Below, one piece after another: positions 3,441-61,483 of a stretch of 64,000 bases of DNA. The stretch is from contig OX597817.1 of assembly GCA_951406725.2 (NCBI GenBank), positions 102,300,001 to 102,364,000 of the forward strand. Reading direction: 5' to 3'. The notes beneath the pieces are model-generated. The model did no database searches and was not told the origin of the DNA. It was given only the letters and a program-made list of their open reading frames with translations. Positions within the stretch are counted from its first letter, which is position 1. Every line of letters begins with the position of its first letter. Origin of the DNA: Octopus vulgaris. Its lineage: Eukaryota. Both the position numbers and the translations under genes were made by a program.

Positions 3441-5300
3441 AAATGTGATGTGTTGGAGGTTCCTAGCACGCTACTACTACTAAAAGATTCAAAAAGGAAA
3501 ATTGAGTTGGAGATTCTGATGCAGCTGAAACCTGAGACACTGGACAGGATTCTCGTGCTAATAGAGGATCCAGGAGGAAAATTGCACATTGTAGACGGGT
3601 GTAGAATCTAGATGCCACAATTGTGGCAACACTGGTCATCTTAAGGCCGTCTTTCCCAACAACAAGAGACAGAGATAACTGAAAGAACACTGCCAACCCC
3701 ACAGCGTCAACAACGCCAAAAATAGCAACAATTACAACGTCAAAATAACACCCAAATTAGCGTGCAACATCAGTAACAACAACTGAAAGAATGGAAGCTC
3801 CTACAACAACAACAGCAACAGTAGAAGCAACAACAGAGTACCGCTCTTAAAGTCTGCCACATCACTGACAACAGCGACGATAACAGTAACAGAATACCTC
3901 AACATTCAAAACGCTCATCTGCACAAACGATTCGAACACCATCTTCAACACGAACTACGGAAAAATAAATCATCCACTACACAATCATAGATACAATCAA
4001 CAAAAATTAATGAATTACGGACATCAGCATACAAGCATTGAACACAATAACTTCATCACACCAACAAATAACGTACTTTCACACACCAGCAATTCTTAAA
4101 ATCTACAAATGAAGCAACAAACTAAAATAAAATATTCAAATAGAATGGAGGATTTGCGAGGGATCATAAACAAAATGATTTACACAAATTTACTGACAGA
4201 ACTAACCGGAAGAACCTTTCATAGGGGTAAGTGATTAATCTTTGACTCAAACTGGCCTTACTTAGAATAGATAGCCTGAATGAATCTGGTTTGGGGTCAA
4301 CTTGAAAGCAAGACCACCTGACCAGATATAAATATGGTGACTATTGGCAAGACCATGATTTCTAAGGCGCATGCCTTCACATCCGTATTCGACAGATGCG
4401 AGTTGTACGTATCTCCAAGTAAACTAATATCGACGTGAGAATAGGGTGGAATCGCTGTGTTGTTTCGGAAAAGTTTGTAACTCTCGTGAACCCAGAAGCT
4501 AAGTCGGTGGTGCTGAAGGTGACCAGCAGTCAAGTTACACCTTCAGATTAGTAGCTGTCTATACCCGACATAAGTGGGACCGCCAGATTTCTTTAGGCGT
4601 GTAGATTCTTTCTTGTGAATGTCCCACCTTTTAGTGTTAATGGGAGATTGCAAGGGTGTCTTGGATGCACCATCTGACTATTTTGGGTTAACTGATACGA
4701 AAAGAGGTGCAAAAGCCTTTAAAATATTCACAGACATTTCCACTTGTCTGACAGTTACCAACATTTTTCGAATGTGCTAATGTGGACATGACCATACAGC
4801 ATCGGATCCTCCAGATAGTATCTAGAGTATTCTGTAGGCCAATGGATAAGGATAACATAGGTTGTCCAAAATTTAGAATCATTGGATGTAAAGACGACAA
4901 ATCGTGATCTGTATGTATGGTCGACCTTCATTTGTAGGGATCTAGTTCCTAAAAACTGAATGCATTTTTCCCGATGCGCAAAGCTCAAGAATGTAAGGGT
5001 ACTCGTCAGCAACAAATGATTTGCCATGAAAATAACAATTAGAACGGAGTCAACATAAGGGACTAACGAAAGAAAGAAAACTAATTTAGAAGGAGGTCTA
5101 GTTGTTTAGCGGGGTACAAAAGCATTGTGACCAACCTACTTGAGGCGCGACTGATCCACTCCGACCATTTCTTCAACGCAAAGCACAAGCCCCTTTGACA
5201 GAGCTAAAATGCGTGCTTTAAAATACGAAGGAACGAAAACCATTCAATGAGTCCAAGTGAAAGAGGTACAACGTGGCAGCAAAGCTACAATTCAGTCTTT
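3441..5300 (+). mobile_element. Old Tx1/L1-like LINE remnant (ORF1 zinc knuckle and APE endonuclease)
   Basis: CHNCGNTGHLKA knuckle at ~3613-3650; APE-like motifs GGIAVLFRKSL (~4444), RLVAVY, LVLMGDxKGVLD (~4630); many stops and frameshifts. Confidence 0.7.
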
Positions 5301-7186
5301 GCCGGGCGGAACAACTGCGATAGTGGAATTAATGAATGGTCGCAACAACAATTGCAGCAACGAATTCAAAAGTACAGAAGCAAAACTGCGAAGGACCAGA
5401 CGCGTCAGCCTCACGGACAACTAAATACTCATCTAATGAGTGAGCCCTGCTCCTCCAGACACGCACACAACTGAACGTATCAAGCTATGAACCAATGAAT
5501 TTAGTATATTATAGTTTACAGTGTAATAATTATTTCATTCATCTCTGGGGTGAATGGATTGATATAAACTGTAGAACAACTAGGAGACACCTAGTTAGGT
5601 GCTTTGTATTCCTATGTTCAAATAACGTCAGTGCACCTTTCCTGCTTTAATTAGGATATTATAAGTGATAATTTTCAATCGATTAGATTTATAAATTTCT
5701 ACCTGCAAAATTAGTTTTGAGCGTAAGAGATAAATATAAGAATTCGTTCTATCTTTTTTTTTAAAAAAAAAAAGCTTAGGTGGGAATTTGGACTTCAAAT
5801 TTGTCATCAAAAATTGAGCCAACTCGACTAACAATCTCAGCGTACCGTATAGTGATGATATACCTGGAGAGACGACTGACATGCATGCTTACAGCTGCAC
5901 ACACGCAAATACCAACACATGGTGTAGTGGTGGACGTTGAAAGTCTCTGCGAAATAAATGCAAGCAGTAATGCTTGGTATTGCTGCTATTCAACACCAAT
6001 ATAATACGAAAGGTGACTGGAATTCGGAAAGACTCAATTACAGGATATTTCTCATTCAGGTATTAAAGAAAGAAATAGAAAAAAAACGGCAGCAGCAAGA
6101 CGAACAAGCAACGATATGATTATAATGGCCAGACATTGATGCATAATGAACAGTCTAGTGAAAAAAAAAAATGAATAAAAACAAAAATACCGATATTAAA
6201 GCATTCTTCAAATAACTGACCTTGACCTTAACAGCAAGTCTTTCATTGAGAAAGGTCAATTGTCAAATCTAACGAAGATGAATCGAAATGTCTTTCATTC
6301 TATTGCGTATTCCTTTCTATCCACCATTTTCCTTTGGTGAGGTCGTCGCTTGCGTGTGGGTAGGTAATAACAGTTAGCACCACTGCTGGAATGTTGTGGT
6401 CTTTGTGAGAGGGGAGAGAGATGTAACAGAAAATGTGTGTCTGTGAGTGTGCTGTTTATTTTCTCCCTGTTTGCTGGATGAGTGTTTGTAGATAAGAGGT
6501 ATGTTTAGTTGTGGTTACTATGTGGATGGGTAAATGAGAGAATGTATGCTCTTTAGCTTGAGGGAGCTTTTTTTAAAATGCTTGTGCCTGTATATATGTA
6601 AGTACGCTGTATGGGAATACAAATGAAACTGAGAGAAAATGTGCTATTTGTGCAGGTTTCTGTGCATGTATTAGTTTGAATGTATATGCTCATAAGTAGT
6701 GGACTGAATGAAATAGCTATGTATGTGTGTGTTTCTCGACATTTCTGACTGCGTATGTGTACGGGTGAATATGCTTGTATGAGTAAGCATGCGTAAACAT
6801 GTTTGTTGTTGGATGATTCAAAACTATGTGTATATGAGCATGTACATTTTTCTAGCTTTTGAAATATGCAGTCCTTGTCAATCGGTGCATTTGTTTGAAT
6901 TTGCGTGTCAAATAGAAGAAATGACATTGCTTCAATGCAAGCATTGTTATGGCTGAATTTGTTGCTGCAGTCGTAATAGCTGGGTAATTCCAGCCAGCCC
7001 TACTTGAAAAAAAAAATCAAAAAAAGAAAAAAAAAGTACGAGACGGTGGTACGTGATCGAGTGGTAAACAGTCCCCTATAAATCCGGGTATAAGAGGGAT
7101 CAAACTGGTTGAGACCAGTATAGCAGTCGTGAACGCTACATATTTGCCGTGGATCTTTGCTATGGTTGCGGTTTAAAGTTACCAGG

Positions 7187-7392
7187 TTGTTATTCGCTAG
7201 CCTTGATCCAGCAGACCTACGAACAAAAAGATCTCGCTGTGATCATACCCACTTTTCTTTATTCAAACAGTATGCCTTGAATCATATTCACAGACCCCTT
7301 CCTTTTCAAATGTCGATAGTGTGGTAATTGCAGGTAATTTGGCTGACGTCTTTAGAAGACTGAACGATCGCGAAGAGCCTTCTTCCGTTGTT
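7187..7392 (+). mobile_element. Ancient dispersed repeat, family D (SINE/LINE-tail-like)
   Basis: Similar to copies at ~9157-9360, 22070-22210, 33960-34180, 36410-36560, 54677-54860, 56180-56390, 58620-58830 (shared cores gatcgagcagacctatg and gatttggctgctatttctagca); origin unresolved. Confidence 0.5.
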
Positions 7393-7761
7393 CATAAAGC
7401 TAGCAAAATTTGAAACCAAAATTTTACGTTTGGTCTCTTTCGCTTATGTCCACTCATTTGTAGAGTAGGCTTGAACACAATATTATATCTGTTCTCGCCT
7501 AGAAATGTAAATTTTTCATTATGTATATGAAATGACTACTTTAGTGCAGTAGATTTGGAGAAAATGCAGAAGTCGAGACTAAATATCCAGTAGTATTTAG
7601 ATTTGGCCCTTTACATATTAGTTCCGATCTCACCAGACTTGATTTTGCTGCTGTTTATCGTTGTGTAATACTAGATTCTATTCTATTGCTCGATCTGCAA
7701 AAAGTATCAGCTAATTCATTCAATAGTGTTGAGTGAGTAATAATAATGATTTTTATTTTCA

Positions 7762-7968
7762 TTCTAAATTTGGCGCAAGGCCGATAATTTTGAGGGGAGA
7801 AGTCGATTACATGGACCCCAGTGCTCAACTGGTACTTATTTTATCGACCCCGATGGGATGAAAGGCAAAGTTCACTTCAGAGGAATTTTGAACTCAGAGC
7901 ATAAAAAGCCGGAACAAATGCTGCTAAACATTTTGTCTGACGCGATAATGATTCTGCCAGCTTGTCAC
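7762..7968 (-). mobile_element. tRNA-derived SINE family A
   Basis: Reverse complement of head ...agctggcagaatc...gagttcaaa and core ctttgcctttcatcc...ggggtcgataaaataagtaccag, shared with >10 copies in the window. Confidence 0.85.
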
Positions 7969-8597
7969 TTTTGTTGAGGTAGGTAATAATACAAATATTG
8001 GTGTAGTTACAACAGCAGTTGTTTGTATATACAAAAAGGTGGGTTGTTTATGTCTTAAGTGTCTTTATCATAAGTTTAATGGACAACGACTGACCTGGGG
8101 GCTCAGCAACAACAACACAGTACCTCTCAATACTGATTTCGTATTTAAGCTTGAATTCACAGATCTGTAGAAGAGGGAAGTGTAAAAGGGGTGATATTCG
8201 TATCTTTTTCAAGGGATTTGCAGGTGCAAGTGAATGAGTATTTAGTGAAAGACTTGATGCCCTGAAAAACGTTATGCCTCATCTCGCTCCTGGCGTCCGC
8301 TCTCTCAGTCATTACAATGCATATCGATTTCTTATATTAAGAAAGCGAATATCAGTTTGTAAAGAAGGAGTGTAGATGATTGATTAAACACAGGCATTTT
8401 TAAATGGTACTAATTTCATGATGTTGAGTGTGGAAGACAAAGTCGACTCTAAAAGATCTTAAATCCACTTTACATTCAGCTAAATTGTTTAGCTAAAGTC
8501 AAACCCTTATCCTTACATCTTCATTAAACACTGCAAAGTTAGTAGAACTGCATGATTATTGCTTTTGGAGGCATTTTCAGTGTCACTTTAGATCAGT

Positions 8598-8886
8598 GAA
8601 GGCACGTGGCTTAATGGTTAGGGTATTCGGTTCCCGATCGTAAAGTCGTGCGTTTGATTCCTAGCGGCACATTGTATCCTTGATCAAGACACTTTATTTC
8701 GCATTTTTCTAGTCCACTCAGCTGGTAAAAATATGTAGTACCTGTATTTCAAAGGGCCAGCCTTGTCCCATTCTGTGTCAGGCTGAATCTCACTGAGGAC
8801 TACGTTAAGGGTGAGCGTCAATTTCAGGCTGTTCCGTTGATCGGATCAATTGGAACATTTGTCGTCGCAACCGACGAAGTGCTAGT
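8598..8886 (+). mobile_element. tRNA-derived SINE family B with 11-bp TSD
   Basis: A-box tggcttaatgg, degenerate B-box gtttgattcc; flanked by TTTAGATCAGT (8587-8597 and 8887-8897); body shared with 29024-29411. Confidence 0.85.
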
Positions 8887-9506
8887 TTTAGATCAGTCAA
8901 TTCCAATTCTCAGTTGATTAAAGCATTCCCAATTTATCCAACTTGTATCGGCACCAGGTGGCAGCTGCTCACTAGCCGTCTCTTCCATTGTTATTGGTGC
9001 AGTAGTATGTTCTTACTTCTTACAAAATCCTTCTTACTCCACTTGTAGTATCAGCCTCAATGGGAGTCACGCAATTAAGGGAGCTTTTCCTTGACTTCAG
9101 ATGACTTTAAACTGATATTTTTTTTAATATTAAATGTCATCGTCGTGATCCTTCTTGTTGTTTAACTCTAGATCATCTATCATAGAGCGAACCTGCTCTC
9201 AGATGTACACCAGCTTTGACTATTTCATCTTTTATCCTGACAGTGTCTGATACCATATTATGCAATGTATTCATTAAAAAAAATGAAAGCTATGATTCTA
9301 AAAAAGATTTGACTGCTATTGAATGCGGATTGACTACCCAGTTAAGGGTATGTTTGTTAGGATGCCACTCTATTTGTTACCACTGATGCACCTTCGTGTG
9401 GTGGTGATTTCTGACGGTTTGCAGGGTTGTCAGAAATGGACGTGATGAACCAAAGGAATGAAATCGGGTGTAAACCATCACCACCTTACTTCATCAGAGT
9501 AACAAT

Positions 9507-10067
9507 GTCGGCGGAATCCTGGTTCAAGTATTCCATATAAACCCTCATAACTTTTTTATGTTTTGGAATTTTCGGAAAAGTTTTGTAAATTTGTGTTCTA
9601 CACAAGAGAATTCATACGATTATGTAAATACAAAAAAATAATAATTTTTTTCTGACCCTTACTTCCCACCCATAAATCCTAAAAGTTCTACCCATTTTCG
9701 ATTTTTTAAAAAAATTAGAGTTTAAAATACTGACAGTCCGAAGTTTTTGTTTAAATCCCAGCAATGGACCATCCATGGGTGCATTATCATGCCATTAAAT
9801 GTATTTACGGGGAGAAAAAATATTGTAAAACACCAATACATGTCAGAGTGACAAAGTAACGAGGAAGATAGGTGGTCGTGAGATGTGCTAAAAATAATAG
9901 CTAAATCACCCTTAAATCACCACACAAATTTTTCTTTCTATAATTTTTGCATAATCGTATGAATTCCCGTGTGTAAAACACAAATTCACAAAAAAATTCT
10001 GAAAATTCCAAAAAATAAAAAAGTTATGACACATGATATGGGGTGCTTTAACCAGAATCCCGTCACA
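9507..10067. mobile_element. MITE with ~120-bp imperfect terminal inverted repeats
   Basis: cataacttttttat..ttttggaattttc...gaattcatacgattatg (9546-9625) is mirrored by cataatcgtatgaattc...gaaaattccaaaaaataaaaaagttatga (9950-10029). Confidence 0.75.
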
Positions 10068-11120
10068 ATGCCATACTTCGAACTATCACTATCTCATTAA
10101 CTATCTCAATACAGTATTTTGCTAACTACTCCAACAACATGCAAATTATCCAATATTGTACCGCTAACTACCCCTCCCCACAAGTTGTATTACTACATAT
10201 CCTAGCATCATACTACAAACTTACCCAGTGCCATACTGTTATCTGCACAAATACAAAACTACTTCCTCCAATTCCTTTACTACTAACTACACCAATATTA
10301 TACAACTAACCAAATATCATACTACTAACCACCTGAACACCATATAACTAAGAATCCGAAGGCATACTAAATATACCAGTACTACTAACTACCCCAATAC
10401 AAAGCTATTACGACATCATATTACTAACTACCCAAATACCATAGTGTTAAAATGCTCCACGCTATGCCACTAGCTACACTGATACTGTACTACTAGCATC
10501 AAATACCATTCTTCTAAAACTACCTCAGCACCTGTACATAACCAACTCTTTAATACCACAATGATTATCGAATACTAACGCGGCGAGCTGGCAGAATTAT
10601 TAGTACACCGGGCAAAATGCTTAGTAGCATTTCGTCCGTTTATACGTTCTGAGTTCAAATTCCTTCGAGATCACCTTTTTTTTTGTTTTCTTTCGGGATC
10701 GATGAAATAAACGCCAGCTGAGTACTAGAGTCGACGTAATCAACTGAACTACACCCCACCCGAAATTGCTGACCTCGTGCTAAAATTTGAAATCAATAAT
10801 TATCCAATACCATACTACTAACTGCGGAACATCTGTGCTACTAACTACCACAATATTGCATTACCAATTACCTCAATACTGTACCACTAACAATGCCAAA
10901 TTCATACAACAAACTATATCAATACCTGTGCCACTACTGACTCCAAGATTGTACTAATAACATACTAATTCTTTACTCCTAACTGTCACGCCACAAGGCT
11001 ATGCCACTAACTTCTCCAATATTACTCCAATGTTGTACTACTAACCATACCAAATCTGTATTAGTAACAACACCATTGTCATGAGCAATAACCATGATAA
11101 CAACCAGTTCTAGTAACACC
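10068..11120. repeat. Degenerate ~25-bp minisatellite (approx. CAATACCATACTACTAACTACC), interrupted by a SINE
   Basis: Recurrent tactactaactac / caataccat units. Confidence 0.65.
10582..10793 (+). mobile_element. SINE family A
   Basis: ggcgagctggcagaattattag...gagttcaaattcc; family core and tail. Confidence 0.85.
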
Positions 11121-12204
11121 GTCATCAGAGCACCAAGACTACCATCAGGAACGACAAGAACAGAATCAGCAAAAGTTAGCTCTTTTTAATGCTCTTCAAT
11201 GGTATCACCAAATCTATTGCATTTCACAAATGCAACCATAGATTCTATGTCTGCCACCATTATACACCTTCTCATCCTTCCCACACCTAAACTTGGAGAA
11301 AGAGAAAATATAGAAATCGATAATGAATAGTATCTAGTTTTTAAAAAATGACCAATAACAGAAACAATACTAAGAGTAGTAAAAACATTAATAACATCAA
11401 CATTATTGTTAAAACATAACTGCTTGCTAGTAGCTGGATTCAAGCCAGAGAATGTAGCTAGCAAGCGATGACAAATAACCAATTACCATGTATGAAAATT
11501 CGTCTGGTAACTAAGAGGGAAGTTGGAATGCCAGTTGTACTAAAAGGTCATTTGTACCTAGTAAACGCAAAGACCAGTTCAAAGGTCAGAAGGAGGGAAC
11601 AGGGTACGCTTAATTTCTGTGAGTGGTTTGGCTTGGCTAGTTATGTTAAATATTTGTTCCAACTTCCTTTTGCTGTTATGGTTATCTCTGTTTAGCGTCG
11701 AACACACACATTTGATCTTTCTATTTTATTTATCTCGTATCTCACTTGCTTCTGCCTCTCCTGTAATTCTGTTAATTGTTTTTGCTCCTCTGTTTAATTG
11801 TGTCCTTGTTAATGTAGTTTGAAAGATAGTAAAATTAGTGGTATGAAAAATATTGGCAGTTAATGAAGTTCTAATGTAGTAGTTTCACAGGCAAATCGGA
11901 TACAAGACATCTTATTTAACCAGTGCTTTAAGAGACGTTAGTTGATGAATGAGATACGTGACAGAAAAAACAACAATATTTATCAATATTCAGAAGGAAT
12001 CCAGCTTCATCGTGGTGGAGCAAAAGTAACTCAATTTATTTGACAATAGAAGCGTGAAAAAGAAAGCATATTCAGAAATTTGTTCTTCCTGGTTCTTGTT
12101 CTATTCATGTTAATAAAACATTCATGTTTTATTAGATTAGCAACAAAAGAGTATACCTTGTTAATGACTGTCTGTAATTAAAAGAAAGAGAAATTAAATT
12201 ATTT

Positions 12205-12375
12205 TGAATCGCTGGAGTGCTGGAGAAAAATGCTACACAACGAGCTCAAACTCTGCAGGGGACAACTTTTATCTTTTGCGGTCGATAAAATAAAGTACGA
12301 GTTAAGTATATGAGTCGATATAATAGACTATTTTCTCTCCTCAAAATTTCAGGCCTTGTGCCTATACTAGAAAGT
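12205..12375 (+). mobile_element. Degenerate SINE family A
   Basis: gtcgataaaataaagtacgag...aaaatttcaggccttgtgcctatactagaaag. Confidence 0.65.
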
Positions 12376-12530
12376 CATTCCTAGTTCTAGAGCAGCTGAT
12401 GTCGGAATCAACAGAACGATAGACAAATACCATATTTCTTTATATAGTTTTATGTTCTGAGTAAAAAAAATATGTGCCATATTTGGCTTTGATCTTTCTA
12501 GGGGTCATGAAATAAGGAGAAGTAAATAAC

Positions 12531-12794
12531 TGTCAGGACCCACTACTTTGGAACAACATCTTTATAACAGTCTCGTAGTACGCACTACAGCTCAAGATAG
12601 AAGTCACCAAATTATATAACACGAAATGTGATGAGGTAGATCCGAAGTGTGACTATTTCTAGTTTGAAACTATCGTATCGATTGCTATAAACCTGTAATT
12701 AAACTCTCTTTGTTTTGGTCAACCTCTCGATCCATCTCTCTTTCAGTTTTACTTTCTATGTCTCTTTATCTATCATTCACATACACATCCTACA
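12531..12794 (+). mobile_element. Possible solo LTR
   Basis: Begins TGTCAGGA, ends TCCTACA, internal TATATAA and AATTAAA; no clear TSD. Confidence 0.3.
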
Positions 12795-13210
12795 GAACAG
12801 TTGTGAGAAGCGATAACGAAGGAGAAATTATTGTAATATAAACGCCTACGTTAGATTTTCTTGCGTGTAAGTTGAAGATGAGATCTACTCAAAAGTATAG
12901 TACAGTGTGACAAGTCTACACATTTTGTGCAAACTTGTACTTCCCTTCTTCATCGTCCAAGTGAATTGGATTTGACATTAACGATAAAGGAGTTGGCTAA
13001 GTCTAGGATAAAAGCTATAAGATAAATCTAAATGTTGTACCGGATCTCCTTGTTTACACACTAATAATAATTTGCTAAAATAAGAAAAAGTATCAACTGA
13101 ATGCTATTTTTGGCTTTTGGGATTTTATTCGGAGCAAACTAGTTTGAAGCATTGGACTTTAACCGCATTTCATAATATTCATTAAAAATACAAATACAAT
13201 CACGTTTGCT

Positions 13211-13322
<112 letters not shown>

Positions 13323-13952
13323 GATACATTATCAACTTGGTGGTGTACGAAGTGTTTTCGCGCGATTAGATATATAAAATAAAAACAGGGGACGTAGCTG
13401 GTGAAAATGAAAGGAGATTAGAATTTTGCATGAGAGAGAAAGGGATATGGCAAAAAAGAGGTGCATGTACAGAAACTAGCGTCGGGTAAGCGGTAGTTGA
13501 CTTTTATTTTTTAAACAGTACGTAGCCATAAAGAATGAGATGAAGCACAGACCCCCAATATGTAATTGATATTATGCTATCGAACCCAAAAATAAAGTCC
13601 ATCAAGGCAAAAGTTGAATTTAGATTCAGGAAGATATAACTAAACACCACAAGACATTTAATCCGGTGCTCTACTAATTCTGCCCAGTCGAATAATCTCA
13701 AATTTTTTTCTAGGAAAGAGCAGAGTGATGGAAGCGTATAAAGGAAAGCTGTAAAATTTTTTGAAATGGGTCGCCTTGCTTGCGAAAGCTTAAAAGAGCG
13801 CTGGCTTCGGTGGAGCTATCATCAGAATCTCAACGAAAATATAAAGTGTTGGAAGTGTGTAACGTGTGGCCGTGTACACATTTCTAAGGCTGGATTTGTC
13901 AATACTCAAAAGTCCCATGAAAGATCAGCAGGTTATGTATAGTGATTAACTG

Positions 13953-14179: not shown

Positions 14180-14447
14180 CTATTAATATTGTTTAAAAAA
14201 AACGTTATAGGATATAACGTCAGAGGTAGCCTATAGAAAGAGGAGAGATAAAGTAAAGAAAAACTAAATAAATGAGAATTATATGACTATATGTATATTA
14301 AATAAAACCTTATAGACTAGGGAAAATGTATATCTAGTGAATGTGAAAAATAAAAATAAAATTTATGTTTAAATTAATTTTTTTCCCTCTAGAAATATTA
14401 ATAACAAGGTTATTGTATATGAAATCAATTCCAACAGCATTAAGTTT

Positions 14448-14837
14448 ATGTCAAGTAACTCTAAAATTAAAAATTCTATATACCAGTGTAAAATTACTAC
14501 TCATAATCAAGTATATTTTTATATGGGAAGCACGTCTTCACAGTTATCTAGAAGAATTTCTAATCATTACTCGACATTTAGGGATAGGAATAACGGTAAC
14601 AGTACAAGGCTTAGTAAATTAATTTGGGATCTAAAAGACCACAATAAACAGTTTAATTTAGATTGGTTGATTCTCTCAATCTCGACACCTTATGACAAAG
14701 GCAAGGAATTCTGTCTTCTCTGTAATTCTGAACAATTTTTCATTCTTTTTTCTAAAAATCTGTTTGTAAACACGGTTATAGAGCGTGCATACCGATGTAA
14801 ACATTGGCAAAAACACACCTTTAGTTCATATAAGTGA
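14448..14837 (+). CDS. PLE-type GIY-YIG endonuclease domain (uninterrupted frame, no RT)
   Basis: NSIYQCKIT...FYMGST, RRISNHYSTF, TRLSKLIWDLK, CLLCNSE, FVNTVIE, YRCKH: GIY/YIG-like strands plus R, E, N at expected positions; expression not shown. Confidence 0.75.
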   Translation: MSSNSKIKNSIYQCKITTHNQVYFYMGSTSSQLSRRISNHYSTFRDRNNGNSTRLSKLIWDLKDHNKQFNLDWLILSISTPYDKGKEFCLLCNSEQFFILFSKNLFVNTVIERAYRCKHWQKHTFSSYK

Positions 14838-15120
14838 TCTCTATCATTATATATAATTTAAACATTAATTTTCTTTTTATATTTCACATTCACTAAATAT
14901 ATATTTCCCTAGTCTATAAGGCTTTATTTAATATACATATAGTCATATACTTCTCATTTATTTAGTTTTTTCTTCACTTTATCTCTGCTCTTTCTATAGG
15001 CTACCTCTGACGTTATATCCGATAACATTTTTTTGAAACAATATTAATAGTGTTCAGTTAATCACTATACATATCCATCATTTTCTATTAAAATGTCTTA
15101 TTGACGAGTTTCATTTCTTC

Positions 15121-15210
15121 ACTTCCCTGAAGAGAAGATTACATTGTTTTACACCATTTTATTTCCTTTGGAATAATATCAGTGATATCTTCGAAACATA
15201 TGTCGGAAGT
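15121..15210 (+). ncRNA. Type-I hammerhead ribozyme (HHR-1)
   Basis: ACTTCC-CTGAAGA-GAAGAT(long loop)ATCTTC-GAAA-CATATG-TC-GGAAGT: stem I 6 bp, canonical CUGANGA/GAAA core, GUC triplet (cleavage after 15204), palindromic stem III ACATATGT. Confidence 0.85.
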
Positions 15211-15404
15211 AAGAGAATTTGAATTACACCTGCGATAAACTCCATTTATTTATTTATATATTATACAAAAAATTTCTCGTAAACCCGAAGTTTCTACCTT
15301 TAAAAACGAGTTACAACCTTTTTACTTCTATGACTTTTTCCTACCCTGGTAACTATGTATCTATTTTTTCCGTGTTAATTGTTAACAAGGGCAAAATACA
15401 CACA

Positions 15405-15471
<67 letters not shown>

Positions 15472-15957: not shown

Positions 15958-17325
15958 CCAAACCTGTTGACTAAAGGCCTCTCTAGCGAGTAACCTCTCC
16001 AGAATATGGAGGGGGAAAGGACCCCACTACTCAATGTCATCAAAGGCTATCGAACGCTGATGTCAACAAAGAGGATTGTCTAACCTTGGCTATCAATCGT
16101 CGGTGACCCTGTTATCTCGTAGGTTCCAATAGGCTAGCAAGAATTTCCTGAAATGTAAGCACGGTCCGAAGACCTCCGTTCTGGAGTTCATGATGTTTCT
16201 TGGGTCGAGGAAGTCCTTTAGGATTCTCGTCCGTTCCACTATGCATAATGGTCCCGTTAATGTAGGGGCCTGGATTTTCTAGGATTCTCCATGATATTGT
16301 GTATGGAATCCCGTCGTAAATCAGCTACCATACATGGCTGGCTAATGACGTGACGAATCTACTTTCCGGTATCCTGAAGGAGGGTCTGTGATTGGAAAGG
16401 CGTTGTTTAAACGAGTTCCCGGAACAGCTGATGTATCTCCGTGGTTGGGTGTTGATGTTGGTGTGTTGTCTGTTGGTGTTGACGTCGCTGCCACCGTTGT
16501 TGCTGGAACTGGCGTTGTTGGTGCTGACGTTGTTGGTGTTGGAATCATTGGAGGTGGCGATGGTGTTGGTGCCACCACTGCCAGTGACGGTAAAGGTACA
16601 GTTATTGTTATCAAAGACATCGCCATTGATGGAGACGCTGTCGTTGCTGTTGTAGATGTCATTGGCAGTGTCTCTGCTGCTATTTCCGTTAGGGATACTG
16701 CCATTGCTGTTATCGGTGGCGAAGATGCTGTTGGTTCTGTTCGCGTTTCTGCTGCTGCTACTATTGTTACTGACATCCCTGCTACTATGTCCGCCGTTAG
16801 GGGAGCTACTGATGTTGCTGCTGCTGCTAAGGTCGGCCAGTACCTCGGCTTCATAGACGACTCCCTTGGTTTCGCAGTGGCTCCTCGCTGAGTATCTGTT
16901 GCGGTCCCTGTATAAACATCCTGCTCCACTCGTGGACTAGGGGTGCTAACTAGAATGCCCTTAATATTAGGGGCACAGCTAAAAGAGACCCAAAGGTTGT
17001 GTCTGTTGAAAATGCGCCTGTATCTATGTGAACTAATGAAATGTTTATCTATTAACTTCAGGAATATCCTACCTACAGACGTTTTTACGTTAAGAGAGGC
17101 GGGGATGCAAACTAAATGATATTTCTGTGGCACTTCCTTCTACGGATGTTGGGGCCCGGCATGTAGGAGATGCGGTCCCTAAATCCGCTTGCAGTTAAGG
17201 CCTCGTTATAGTAAGGGGCTGCTGCATCAAAAATCTCTTGGCTGGAGGAAAGGCTGTGTTGATGTACGTCAGCCTCTCATTTGGCTTGCAGTAGGGATTA
17301 ACGTGACGTCCGCCATTGTTGATAC

Positions 17326-18180
<855 letters not shown>

Positions 18181-18195
18181 CACACACACACACAC

Positions 18196-18294
<99 letters not shown>

Positions 18295-18392
18295 CGGGGT
18301 AAACACATAAATGTGAAACGAGGTGGAAAAAAGAGTACTCAAATACCAGAGGTAGGGTAATATGCTTTATTTAAAAGCAGTAGAAATTTGAC

Positions 18393-18439
18393 AAAAGCTG
18401 TTACTCGGAGTTTCACGTTCCCGTTCGTCAGACAGTTTT
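18393..18439 (-). ncRNA. Type-I hammerhead ribozyme (HHR-4a, left arm)
   Basis: Minus strand AAAA-CTGT-CTGACGA-ACG(GGAA)CGT-GAAA-CTCCGAG-TA-ACAG-CTTTT; canonical core, GNRA-capped stem II, GUA triplet. Confidence 0.85.
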
Positions 18440-18881
18440 GTTAAAATAGAACCGGGATGACAATTCTATCACGACTAGTATAAATGATACACCTTTAAAA
18501 ATGGATTTGTTTGATTGGTCCTTTCAAATAACGGTCATATGCGAGCGATAAACAAAACAAATAAATGAGTTCAAAATAAAATTATAAAAATCGAGAAAAA
18601 ACCTTAAATAAAAGATTTATATTTTCTACATGTATTAATTGTATTAATAGAATTATATTTTCTTCATAATTAATGACAATATGTATTTCAATCAAATCTT
18701 CGATTTAAGGTTTTTCCTCGATTTTTGTAATTTTATATTGAACTCATTTATTTGTTTTGTTTATTTTTGTTTATCGCTCGCATATGACCGTTATTTAAAG
18801 GACCAATCAAACAAATCCATTTTTAAAGGTGTGTCGCTTATGCTAGTCTTGATCGAATTGTCATCTCGGTTCTATTTTAAC

Positions 18882-18928
18882 AAAAGTGTCCAACGAACGG
18901 GAACGTGAAACTCCGAGTAACAGCTTTT
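18882..18928 (+). ncRNA. Hammerhead motif with mutated core (HHR-4b, right arm)
   Basis: AAAAGTGT-CCAACGA-ACG(GGAA)CGT-GAAA-CTCCGAG-TA-ACAGCTTTT; G5 lost, probably inactive. Confidence 0.7.
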
Positions 18929-19123
18929 GTCAAATTTCTATTGCTTTTAAATAAAGCATATTACTCTACCTCTGGTATTTGAGTACTCTTTTTTCCACAT
19001 CGTTTCACATTTATGTGTTTACCCCGGTACATATATATATATATATATATATATACATACATATATATACATATATATACACAGACATGCAGGAAGTAAA
19101 TAGACACCTTTAATTTTCAAAAT

Positions 19124-24610: not shown

Positions 24611-24616
24611 AATGCA

Positions 24617-24668
<52 letters not shown>
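24537..24668. repeat. (TA)n-(TG)n-(TA)n microsatellite
   Basis: Direct inspection. Confidence 0.95.
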
Positions 24669-24672
<4 letters not shown>

Positions 24673-25065
24673 TAATCCAAACAAGAAAACACAGAAAAAA
24701 AGAGAAAAAAAAGAGAAAAAAGGGGAAAAAACACAGCAACGCAGGACGTGGAACAATTAAAGTATTATTGACGCTCAGGAAAGAAGGGAAGGAGGGTTTA
24801 ATGTTTCGAGCGGAGCTCTTCGTCGGAAACAAGGAGAAGGAAAGATCCCAAGGAGGGAAGACAGAGGAGAAAATATTTGAGCTGGTGGTGCTCAAGAGAT
24901 CACATGTCGAAAGAACAGAAGTTGAAGGTAGTCGAAACAAGGTTTTATAAGGCAAGAGAGTTCCAAAAAGGAATGCGTGTGTATATTTATACACAAATAT
25001 AAGAGAGAATCCACTATGTGGACGCTCTTGCGCTAAAAATAGATCCGCAATGGTCTCAAACACCA
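24669..25065 (-). mobile_element. PLE-terminal-repeat-like element ending at (TA)n, copy 2
   Basis: Same terminus (agttaatccaaacaagaaaac) and body as 17977-18180; the far boundary is uncertain. Confidence 0.65.
24796..24830 (-). ncRNA. Hammerhead-like motif with CCGACGA core (HHR-3b, decayed)
   Basis: Minus strand GTTT-CCGACGA-A-GAGC(TCC)GCTC-GAAAC-ATT-AAAC. Confidence 0.55.
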
Positions 25066-51524: not shown

Positions 51525-54500
51525 CTGTATTCACCATAAGGTTGAGAAAAAGAGGGGGACAAAACAAACGTTGGGGTCAGGGTATCGAATGAGACGAAAC
51601 GTTAAACAAACAAACAGTTAAACAAACAGTTAAAATATATACAATTAAATGAGAATGAGTGAATAACAAAAAATGAAGCGGAGGACGCGGTTGACCCCAT
51701 AAACCACATACTCACACTGAAGACTTCGCTTTCTCCTTTTTTACTTTCTCGATTAAACAGGTTCTTTCACTCGCAACATACTTGCTATATACTTCCATCT
51801 TTTACGAAACACACTTTGCGACAGGCATTTCTTCTCCAGCCTTATTTTCCGTTTCATGGGGAAAACGAAGAAGTCGATTAGCTCGAGACTGGAGATAAAC
51901 ATGCCTGTTGCAATTCCTTTCACTCTCGCCTTTCATACTACTTCTTTCGCCATAGCAACTACCGAGAGAAAACAGGCTCGCTCCTCCCTATTCAGGGAGG
52001 TCGGCAGAACTATCTTAATTACAGATTCGCTCGACAGTTGTACTCTTCTCGAATGCGACAGCAGGTGTTTGACATAAGCCCAGAGTTCAGTCACCTTGGG
52101 GTATTGCACAATCGCGTGCAGGACAGTTTCACTGTCCCCCTCACATCTTGCACAAACCGGCGAAGATGCACACCCATGTCTAAAGAGCTAATCTCGAACC
52201 GGTAAAGCTCCTCTGTAACATTGCCAGGCCAGGGACTTTTGGTAATTATCCATAGGCCCCGGACCGAATGTCCTTTGGAACAGGCTGGCCAGTTGATTTT
52301 CGTCGAAGCCCAGGTTTTCTCCCAGGACGTCGTCACACTTAAACTCTACTAACCCTCTATAGAAGAACGAGGTAGTACCCCCGCCACCGGCTTTGCCCGA
52401 CTGGGAGAGAAGCACGAGTGCCTGATGGCACTCTACATGCCACATGCCCAACCTCGGTCTACACTTGATCCATGGGTTCAGTTTGGTAAACGATGTGAAC
52501 TGTGGAAATAACAGCTTGACGAACGAAGACCACACCTGCTCACCGTCCAGGTAAAGCCAGAGGTGCCTAAGCCTGAGTGCATGTCTGCGCATTTTTAGCC
52601 ACGGTATCCCTAACCCACCCTTCAGCGGCTTTTGGCAGCAAATAGAGCGCCTTACAAGAGGTCTGCTGCTCCTCCACAAAAAGCGAAAGAGCATGCGTTC
52701 CAGCTTGTTCAACAACGAATCGGGGCAAGGCACGACGGTCAGGCAGTAAGTGATTACAGAGGCGATAAACACCGCTGCAACCTCCGCCCTCCCTTTCAAG
52801 GACAGCTTCCGCTCAGACCAGGTCTGAGTTAGGAGAGCCACCTCGCTCCAATTCTTCTCTATCTGGAGATCTGGACCTAATCAGATTCCAAGCATTTTCA
52901 CCGGCCCTTCCGTCCAACGTCCTACGACGCTGTCGGAAGACATCGATTTGCCCCTCCAGGTGCCGAGTTGCAAGCCGACCGATTTATCCCGGTTGACTTT
53001 CGCTCCTGCCACCGCTTCGTAGTCCCTTAAGGCCTCACCCACCTACTGTAGGTGCTCGACTTGGGATACGATGACGGTGATGTCGTCCGCATACGCCGAA
53101 GCTGACTTTCCGCACCCTAGATCTTGCGGAGTGCCCCTCATAGTTTCCAACCTCCTCAGCAACGGCTCGAGGGCCAAAACGTAGAGAAGCGGGGAGAGAG
53201 GACACTCTTGATGTACCGAACGTTCAATGCGGAACGGCTCCGAAAAGAAACCATTCACCCGAACTACCGATTCGATGTTGCTGTATAAAGCGTTGATCCA
53301 TCCGCTGAAGGTCGGGCCGAAGCCAACCACCGTGAGGACCGCCGCCAGATACTGATGGCCCACCCTATCGAACGCTTTCGATTGGTCCAAGTGGACCATA
53401 GCCCCATCCTTGCCAGGAATCCTATTTACCCTTTCTAAGGCATAGCGTAGAAAGTGGAGATTGTCGTGGATGGTCCTTCCAGGGATGGCGCAAGTTTGCG
53501 CCTCGCCAACAAGTTCACCCACGATCCGCGCCAACCTTTTTGCTAAGACCTTGGCCAAAATCTTCAACTCTGCGTTAAGCAGAGTGATGGGCCGAAAATT
53601 ATCAATTAAATCCCCCTTGTTTGGGTCCTTTCTTAACAGCGCTACCACCCCTCGGCTCACAGACTTAGGAATTCTCCAGTTCTGCTGCCAGTTGGTGTAC
53701 ACGCATGCAAGTCTGGCATGCTACTATAGAGTTCGTAAGGCAGACCATCGAGTCCCGGCGATTTGTCCCCGCCGCAGTCTGCCAACACATCCTCGATTTC
53801 TTTGGCTGTGATCGGCGCCTCACAAGATTCCGCGTCCGGCCTCGATAGACGTGGCGAACCGGCTAGGAAGTCTGCGAGCTTCTCCCCGCGTTCCAGTCCG
53901 CCGCTCCTCCCGAATAGCTGGGCGAAATGATCGTGAAACACCTTGCACATCTCCTCGGGTTCGTTTACTAATCGACCCTTTGGGCCCGTCAAAGTTCGAA
54001 TGGCTGAGTTGTTGCCACGCTGGCCCTGTACCACCCGGGCCCATCCGACTGCGTTGATCCCTTCCTGGCTCATTGCACGGATCTTAGCCCTGACAATGCA
54101 CCCTTCATGTTTAGCTTTGAGATGTTGGTCGAGTGCCAACCTCGCCGCTAACACTTTCGATGTACTGCCTGACCTCATTGCCTCATCTATTGCCTTAACT
54201 ATTTCCTTTTCTACTTTGTTTCTAGCACTAGCTAATTCTTTGCTAAACCTAATTGACTCAAATTTGATGGCTCTTTTCAGTGCGTACCACCATTTGTTGT
54301 TGATAATGGATCCGGTTAACACCCTCATTACTAATTGTTTAATCCGATTCCTGTAGGCTTCACAGTCCAATAGTAACTTGTTTAGCTTCCAGTAACCGGT
54401 ACCTCGTCTACACATGCTATCTATGTCGAGCGTACAGGTCACTAATTTGTGATCGCTGTAGCTGACGATATGGTGTTGTGGACGGCTAAGTATTTTCTTA

Positions 54501-54615
54501 TCTTTCCTTCTAGTTCTGATTCTATCTATGTAAGATCTGGACGACCCGTCGTTTCTTGCCCAGGTCCACGCTGGAGTGTCTGGGTGGTCCAGTCTGAATC
54601 GATCTGCCAACTCGA

Positions 54616-54617
<2 letters not shown>
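51520..54617 (-). mobile_element. Tx1-clade (L1 group) LINE ORF2, 5'-truncated, inserted in (TC)n
   Basis: APE end (WTW..SRSYIDRI..YSDHK..GYWKLN), RT (KSPGLDG, FRPITLLN, LDQSKAFDRV, QECPLSPLLY, AYADD), GGLGIP and C-terminal Cys/His region; several frameshifts; (GA)n on both flanks. Confidence 0.95.
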
Positions 54618-54678
<61 letters not shown>

Positions 54679-55031
54679 CGACGTGATCGTTCGTTCTACA
54701 AGGAATAGCAGCCAAATTGCTTTCAAATCCTGACCTACTTCTCTTTAAACTGGAAGGAGCACATTGGAATATATGGTCCTAGATACAAATTGGTCACAGC
54801 TAGATCGCCTTTGATTAATGGTCTCTTTGATCATACCCGACTGGAGGCAAAACAGTAGCACTAACTCAATGTCACAAAAACATTTTATTTAGAAATAGTG
54901 GAATGATTAACTAAATCACATCGTTTCGTAGAATAAGACAGAAACTATACAGAAGCCCGTGGCTTTGAGTTTGCATTTAATTCAAAAGGCGAACCTATTG
55001 CGCTGATTCTGACTGATTAACGTTAAAGTTA

Positions 55032-60651: not shown

Positions 60652-61483
60652 ACGTCACTAAAGTGACCAAGGACACTAATCAGCACCAACATTGCTACAA
60701 ATAAGAGTCAAAGCAACTCAATAGTTACGGATAGCACTGTCTTAATGACTGACAAGGGAGTCTCGGACATAGCCAGATCATCGATGATTTCGCATTTTAA
60801 TGCTCATCAGTGGCTCTCCCCGCACCTAGGGTTAAACTCAGCTCGCTTGTCAATTCATAAGATTTCTGTTCAACGGAAATCAACGTATGTGTATGTATAC
60901 ACACACACACACACACACACACAAATATATATTGTTAATAGAATATTAGTGGCAATTCATAGCGTGAACCGTGCAGGCAAGTTTTTTAAAAAAGATGATG
61001 GTACTGGAAAAGTACCAGCTTTGCTAGAGACAGGAGCCAAATGAACTCCAAACCTACAGAAAGTCCACTTAAAAATAAGCATGATGGAATCGGGCGGTAA
61101 ATAAAAATTAAAGCTCTTACCTTTGCGAAGGCCGCAAAGCAAATGGCAGGTAACTTAATACCGGTTTCGGGCTTTGTATTAAACAATACTTCCCTCTTCA
61201 GTTAAGTTTACTGCGAAAACAGCTAAATTTAAAGATATTCACCTCACCAACCTTGTGTGTTCGTGTGAAGGTCCAAGGCGCATACAGAGACGAACTAAGT
61301 GAATAGTTCATAAATATACAAATATTAATAGATAATAACGTTAGTGGCAAGTTTAAAAGCAACTGATGGTACTCGTGATGCGAGTATCTTTGCTTTTTTC
61401 GCGGTAGAATTATGTATTAATAATATATTTGTATATATATTATTAATACTAATATTAATATTTAATATTATTAATATTAATAT

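Follow-up and report, generated by a model that had tools for sequence, protein, structure and literature searches.

A 740-bp palindrome with hammerhead motifs as the probable remains of a Hydra-clade Penelope-like insertion in a (TA)n tract

What kind of element leaves a 740-bp palindrome that carries hammerhead motifs but no gene within a tract of (TA)n? The question arose from an original prediction for the 64,000-nt stretch of DNA analyzed here (the window), in which arms of ~330 bp around an AT-rich spacer of ~75 bp were described and interpreted as a symmetric, ribozyme-bearing retroelement built from the terminal repeats of Penelope-like elements (PLEs). The dimensions and the (TA)n surroundings were borne out. 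The inverted repeat was found to span 18291 to 19030 (740 bp), with arms of 328 bp (18291 to 18618) and 338 bp (18693 to 19030), a middle piece of 74 bp (18619 to 18692) with 15% G+C, and (TA)n flanking both ends. Alignment of the arms gave 18 mismatches in 327 columns (94.5% identity), plus one 1-bp and one 10-bp indel, and both arms terminated at the identical base. As proposed, no credible open frame was present: in either arm, each of the three outward frames contained stops. The outward order of hammerhead, AATAAA, element end, and (AT)n was likewise present; the AATAAA motif exists, but it had been placed at 18951 to 18956, one base off from its position at 18950 to 18955 (mirror, 18366 to 18371). 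Neither arm carried a 30- to 40-bp tail, which is optional in PLEs. A target-site duplication was unreadable against the (TA)n flanks, a short palindrome at the junction was also absent, and no further copy of the element was found elsewhere within the 64-kb window. The possibility that the spacer is self-complementary or derived from an arm was rejected, the best local scores in this AT-rich sequence being only 18 to 30. The features of the locus, as interpreted below, are as follows.

18199 to 18290, unstranded: (TA)n left flank, the likely target microsatellite; loose contig ends before 18292 were (TA)n-rich in four of four runs.
18291 to 18618, minus strand: probable shorter, inverted, 5'-truncated copy of the element 3' end, 328 bp long and pointing left, away from the center, from the arm alignment and the low junction depth.
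18366 to 18371, minus strand: AATAAA in the outward reading, a candidate signal, from the sequence.
18391 to 18441, minus strand: type I minimal hammerhead with the canonical core CUGACGA (core, 18431 to 18425), by the strict descriptor.
18619 to 18692, plus strand: the "spacer," likely a 5' extension of 74 bp in the longer copy; multi-copy, with depth continuous into the right arm.
18693 to 19030, plus strand: remainder of the probable longer 5'-truncated copy (412 bp including the spacer), reading outward to the right, from alignment and depth.
18880 to 18930, plus strand: decayed hammerhead, core CCAACGA (G5A; 18890 to 18896), with a helix I pair broken at 18886; it fails the strict descriptor.
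18950 to 18955, plus strand: AATAAA in the outward reading, a candidate signal, from the sequence.
19031 to 19080, unstranded: (TA)n/(CATA) right flank, from the sequence.

The prediction of a hammerhead in each arm stood for the left arm only. The strict type I descriptor gave five matches in the window, compared with 0 in 100 shuffles of the window and 0 in 2,000 shuffles of the element. The left arm passed it and carries the conserved core (C3 U4 G5 A6 N7 G8 A9, G12 A13 A14, and NUH). Its helix I was formed by CUGU/ACAG with six additional pairs beyond a bulge, its helix II by 3 bp with a GGAA loop, followed by GAAA, and its helix III was palindromic with a single loop base (18407); the predicted cut fell between 18402 and 18401, 111 nt from the element end. 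The right arm departs from this core by G5A, a substitution that serves as an inactivating control (PMC4027429), and also had the broken helix I pair. The phrase "a hammerhead in each arm" would therefore hold for the ancestry of the palindrome rather than for its present sequence. Rfam reported no hammerhead at 18291 to 19030, either at the gathering score or among 45 matches up to an E value of 10, and low-complexity, miRNA-like matches were dismissed as (TA)n noise. The minimum-energy fold of each single arm was not the hammerhead fold (z scores of 0.17 and −0.01), as expected, since minimal hammerheads are thought to need a partner. Minimal PLE hammerheads have been reported not to cleave as monomers and to cleave weakly as dimers (PMC4209133). 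The locus is predicted not to self-cleave, because the palindromic helix III would need a second sense copy and each strand holds at most one good copy, beside its own antisense. A plus-strand transcript would contain only the broken hammerhead.

The proposal that the arms are PLE terminal repeats rather than those of a plain MITE was upheld by the hammerhead type, the (TA)n target, the depth gradient, and the variable strand switches, the last two of which are described below. The hallmarks of the Hydra clade seen at the locus were a sense type I hammerhead ~100 nt from the 3' end, insertion in (TA)n, and an inverted 5'-truncated copy. The 3' half of the left-arm hammerhead included 22 nt that were identical, by eye, to a stretch close to the 3' end of Hydra-2_Ajap, a PLE consensus that includes an ORF (PMC8557442); since these positions are partly fixed by ribozyme chemistry, the match would indicate type, not descent. 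Among the Hydra-clade families tabulated in that source, helix III takes the form ACTC-N-GAGT in 5 of 25 and starts with ACT and ends with AGT in 16 of 25, and (TA)n is the insertion target of nearly all Hydra families. In the same source, Penelope-13_HM has at its 5' end an inverted copy that is itself 5' truncated, and its two strands carry one hammerhead each (positions 2944 and 102); inverted 5'-truncated copies are described there as common in PLEs, with their mechanism named as an open question (PMC8557442). Hydra-clade PLEs are characterized by a single ORF that joins an RT to a C-terminal GIY-YIG domain without CCHH, whereas the palindrome holds no ORF. The longer copy at our locus extends only 271 nt upstream of its core, and it may therefore stop just short of an ORF. 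Exact-pattern scans found no relatives in viral contigs, metagenome contigs, or prokaryote genomes. The family was not found in the literature searched, a scope outside which subscription journals, Repbase, and Dfam lay, and the short arm motifs appeared in the main text of no paper.

A search of sequencing runs listed 24, of which 20 contained part of the stretch and none contained half of the element's words; the runs therefore represent relatives and not the window's own individual. Contigs from four of them (X1, X3, X5, and X13, the last guessed to be an RNA run), drawn from three studies with three organism labels, were aligned to 18291 to 18735 (8,280, 4,282, 4,227, and 203 contigs, respectively). 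The interval comprises the left arm and the spacer plus 43 right-arm bases, right-arm variants being visible via the mirror only. Summed contig depth is not copy number, and the filters drop records; the contrasts were large and consistent between runs. A very abundant family lies behind the palindrome. Relative to the spacer, depth over the outer 150 bp was higher by factors of 125 (X1), 263 (X3), and 219 (X5), and, to an order of magnitude, it was 10,000 times that of single-locus contigs, a figure that expresses summed depth and not copies. Depth dropped steeply near 18440 to 18455, and loose contig ends at the element tip were (TA)n. A depth peak at the ends would arise equally from MITE subfamilies with shared tips, and with the long terminal inverted repeats, the lack of an ORF, and the TA flanks, it is compatible with a MITE or fold-back DNA transposon, mobilized by a TA-targeting transposase, whose inverted repeats derive from, or simply look like, the end of a PLE with a hammerhead.

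The two sides of the spacer differed sharply in depth. The spacer itself was multi-copy (summed depth of 4,300 to 13,800 in X1), and where it runs into the right arm, at 18689 to 18692, depth was 5,818, 624, and 2,546 in X1, X3, and X5, compared with only 178, 29, and 22 at the left junction (18610). The spacer/right-arm junction was thus 33, 22, and 118 times deeper, or, in single-locus equivalents, ~70 to 140 versus ~1 to 4. Because the spacer was multi-copy and continuous into the right arm while the left junction was near single-locus depth, it likely forms the 5' portion of the longer copy. This asymmetry does not support the original proposal, in which a symmetric element would be mobile as a whole and keep its spacer; the head-to-head layout, moreover, is already published. 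A whole 740-bp palindrome transcribed and reinserted as one nonautonomous PLE derivative, with a hairpin hiding its ribozyme, would explain why the arms share their end base, and the computed fold of the whole stretch is indeed a hairpin of around −500 kcal/mol (−507 or −490 kcal/mol, depending on the strand). It could also draw on the left junction itself, where X3 and X5 had depth too and where up to three X1 contigs were present. One of these, of 229 nt, bridged the same junction with 8 differences in 161 positions (5%); it may be allelic, orthologous, or a further copy, and it counts against the reading adopted here. Opposed to unit mobility are the unequal junction depths, the many other turning points in the family, the 5.5% divergence of the arms, and the broken right hammerhead, as well as a depth of zero over 18621 to 18695 in the run guessed to be RNA, although a hole proves nothing. 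We regard it as very unlikely.

The turning points were located from joints in the contigs. Among the 15 joints listed, of 18 in total, were eight strand switches. No two of them shared the same pair of positions within the arm, all had the depth of a single locus, and three occurred in two runs. The longer side ended at 18428 to 18447 in seven of the eight, which is the 5' edge of the hammerhead and not the cut site. We read these joints as head-to-head junctions of unequal arms; the joint table states no geometry, and the orientation is our interpretation. Four joints to 18726 to 18733 were attributed to mirror mapping near the 10-bp indel and discounted, that at 18618/18663 was interpreted as a linear copy with a deletion, and two "skip" joints were left out of use. 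The depth asymmetry of the junctions and the eight differing strand-switch places together argue that the spacer likely belongs to the longer copy and that a mirror arm likely forms anew at each insertion.

A junction near single-locus depth would be expected as well if a single 412-bp PLE end had inserted first and had later undergone an inverted duplication by DNA repair or replication fold-back, with no role for retrotransposition, and nothing at one locus dates the arms apart. Against that sequence of events stand the strand switches at eight other family loci and the way in which both arms stop on (TA)n exactly where the 3' end of the family lies, and the layout is reported as usual for PLEs; we consider it highly improbable. 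The locus is probably a single insertion, now decayed, of a Hydra-clade PLE family in (TA)n, composed of a 412-bp 5'-truncated 3' end and a 328-bp inverted copy that likely stems from the same integration.

The contigs also revealed the usual core of the family. At 18430, an A>G change accounted for 97%, 93%, 93%, and 79% of the depth in X1, X3, X5, and X13, respectively, so that the usual family core is CCGACGA (U4C). In vitro, U4C brings a considerable drop in activity, yet it is sufficient for a viroid (PMC3088659). We infer that loss of the CpG on one or the other strand of CCGACGA yielded exactly the left (CUGACGA) and right (CCAACGA) cores. Of the 68 variable rows, 40 were listed, and those that fell inside the ribozyme concerned the bulge of helix I (18397), the single loop base of helix III (18407), and core position 4; variation on the loop and the bulge is as expected if the RNA fold was kept. 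Of the 18 sites at which the arms differ, 6 had a listed family majority equal to the right arm, 4 were mixed, and 8 had no listed row. Divergence between the arms was uneven, with 3 mismatches in the outer 138 columns (18291 to 18428) and 15 in the inner 189 (18429 to 18618), P being 0.027 in a single post hoc test; gene conversion or two templates could be the source. For the MITE or fold-back transposon introduced above, the apparent keeping of the RNA fold and the Hydra-type hammerhead are unfavorable, as are turning points that vary by locus, unequal arms, and a spacer continuous with one arm only; uniform full-length copies with a shared interior were not encountered. We give that origin a very low probability.

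A mechanism can be outlined for the insertion of a PLE 3' end with its inverted copy. An autonomous Hydra-type RT/GIY-YIG protein would nick the (TA)n tract and reverse-transcribe the family RNA from its 3' end. Judging by the pattern in the contigs, synthesis would usually halt early, mostly near the 5' edge of the hammerhead and rarely as far as here. A second, shorter copy would be added in opposite orientation at the 5' end, either because both nicked strands are primed or by fold-back, and the turning point would therefore differ between loci. The arms would then decay separately, as is partly shown, with CpG loss in CCGACGA likely accounting for both the canonical-looking CUGACGA in the left arm and the G5A core in the right. 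With AT-rich DNA as substrate, purified Poseidon protein nicks both strands and extends them, with no need for hammerhead cleavage (PMC11167929), and two outward-facing copies could arise by this route. Arkhipova et al. favor self-priming for inverted copies (PMC3846280). The contig data do not separate both-strand priming from self-priming.

Masking of the ribozyme in the hairpin, or formation of double-stranded RNA (dsRNA), as originally suggested, is physically plausible on the computed folding energies. In other animals, heavy editing of palindromic repeats is documented (PMC5625713), so that dsRNA, if formed, would be nothing special to ribozymes. A>G and T>C changes numbered 5 and 8 in the run guessed to be RNA and 2 to 3 and 6 in the DNA runs and were not clearly commoner in the former; contigs cannot show editing. 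A bolder reading would posit a noncoding Hydra-type family of ~10,000 copies with a fixed, weakened U4C core, templates starting at the 5' edge of the ribozyme and not at the cut site, insertions that are hairpins and form a major source of host dsRNA, and a few palindromes, this one included, that were remobilized whole. Taken together, this is speculative and rather unlikely.

Several other elements were observed in the window. A PLE 3' fragment of another family with the same layout lies at 14180 to 15420 and has no real similarity to the palindrome. It comprises the end of a GIY-YIG-like ORF (14373 to 14837) with the CxxC..E..N..CxH pattern described for Hydra, for which atlas look-alikes were found at 0.93 to 0.96 and no Pfam match; a plus-strand hammerhead at 15127, whose helix II is long and which lies 290 nt past the stop of that ORF, then a microsatellite terminus; and, on the 5' side, a partial copy in inverted orientation (14180 to 14376 versus 14854 to 15050, 93%). 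A frameshifted PLE-like fragment on the minus strand (16325 to 17139), Hydra-clade-like by eye, has an in-frame Asn/Ser-rich insert of ~100 residues in the endonuclease region; Asn-rich inserts occur in Adineta Penelope elements at other positions (PMC3846280). Two minus-strand copies of an unrelated short family (17977 to 18170 and 24616 to 24872, 82% alike) carry a hammerhead with a CCGACGA core ~130 nt away from an end that abuts (TA)n, which makes two U4C families in the window. Two more type I hammerheads with palindromic helix III were found on the same strand at 60810 and 61201 (minus), 391 bp apart. Adjoining the palindrome is a (TA)n-interrupted Tc1-like transposase remnant (17550 to 17870, minus; PF01498, E value of 2.7e-05, under the curated cutoff), and broken non-LTR reverse transcriptase and endonuclease frames, L1/Tx1-like by eye, occupy 52188 to 54778 (minus). 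Pfam gave no match for three of the four neighboring ORFs.

As a single locus, the palindrome matters little, being likely a dead insertion that is prone to mislabeling as a MITE by repeat annotators. Its architecture is already known; what is new, in a small way, is the U4C core together with 5' ends lying close to the upstream edge of the hammerhead. A U4C core escapes CUGANGA descriptors, and such families would therefore be undercounted; the position of the 5' ends agrees with the dispensability of hammerhead cleavage for insertion in vitro (PMC11167929). The family is of more use than the locus: with thousands of short copies whose turning points vary, it would allow the formation of inverted PLE ends to be mapped.

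Among known systems, the Hydra-clade PLEs Hydra-2_Ajap, Hydra-2_Amil, and Penelope-13_HM are like the palindrome in having a type I hammerhead near the 3' end, helix III of the form ACTC-N-GAGT, and (TA)n. They differ in that the palindrome lacks an ORF and its family core is CCGACGA, whereas all 25 tabulated Hydra families have CUGA, which the descriptor used for that table demands. Hydra-1_Obim, with a different hammerhead row, is not the same family (PMC8557442). Non-LTR retrozymes are likewise noncoding, hammerhead-bearing derivatives of PLEs, but their units are arranged head to tail in tandem, while the palindrome is head to head (Li et al. 2026, 10.64898/2026.07.22.740005). That identity was rejected, as it requires tandem hammerhead units and the window holds only the inverted pair and no further copy. 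The minimal hammerheads of metazoan PLEs share the short helix I, the palindromic helix III, and a presumed dependence on dimers, whereas helix II of the palindrome has only 3 bp and its family carries U4C. The "dual min-HHRs" of Schistosoma lie on opposite strands 100 to 700 bp apart, and the two cores of the palindrome are ~460 bp apart (PMC4209133). The inverted pLTR structures of Adineta vaga Penelope elements differ from the palindrome, which has no readable target-site duplication, tail, or short junction palindrome, but in them head-to-head inverted terminal copies are the commonest arrangement (PMC3846280).
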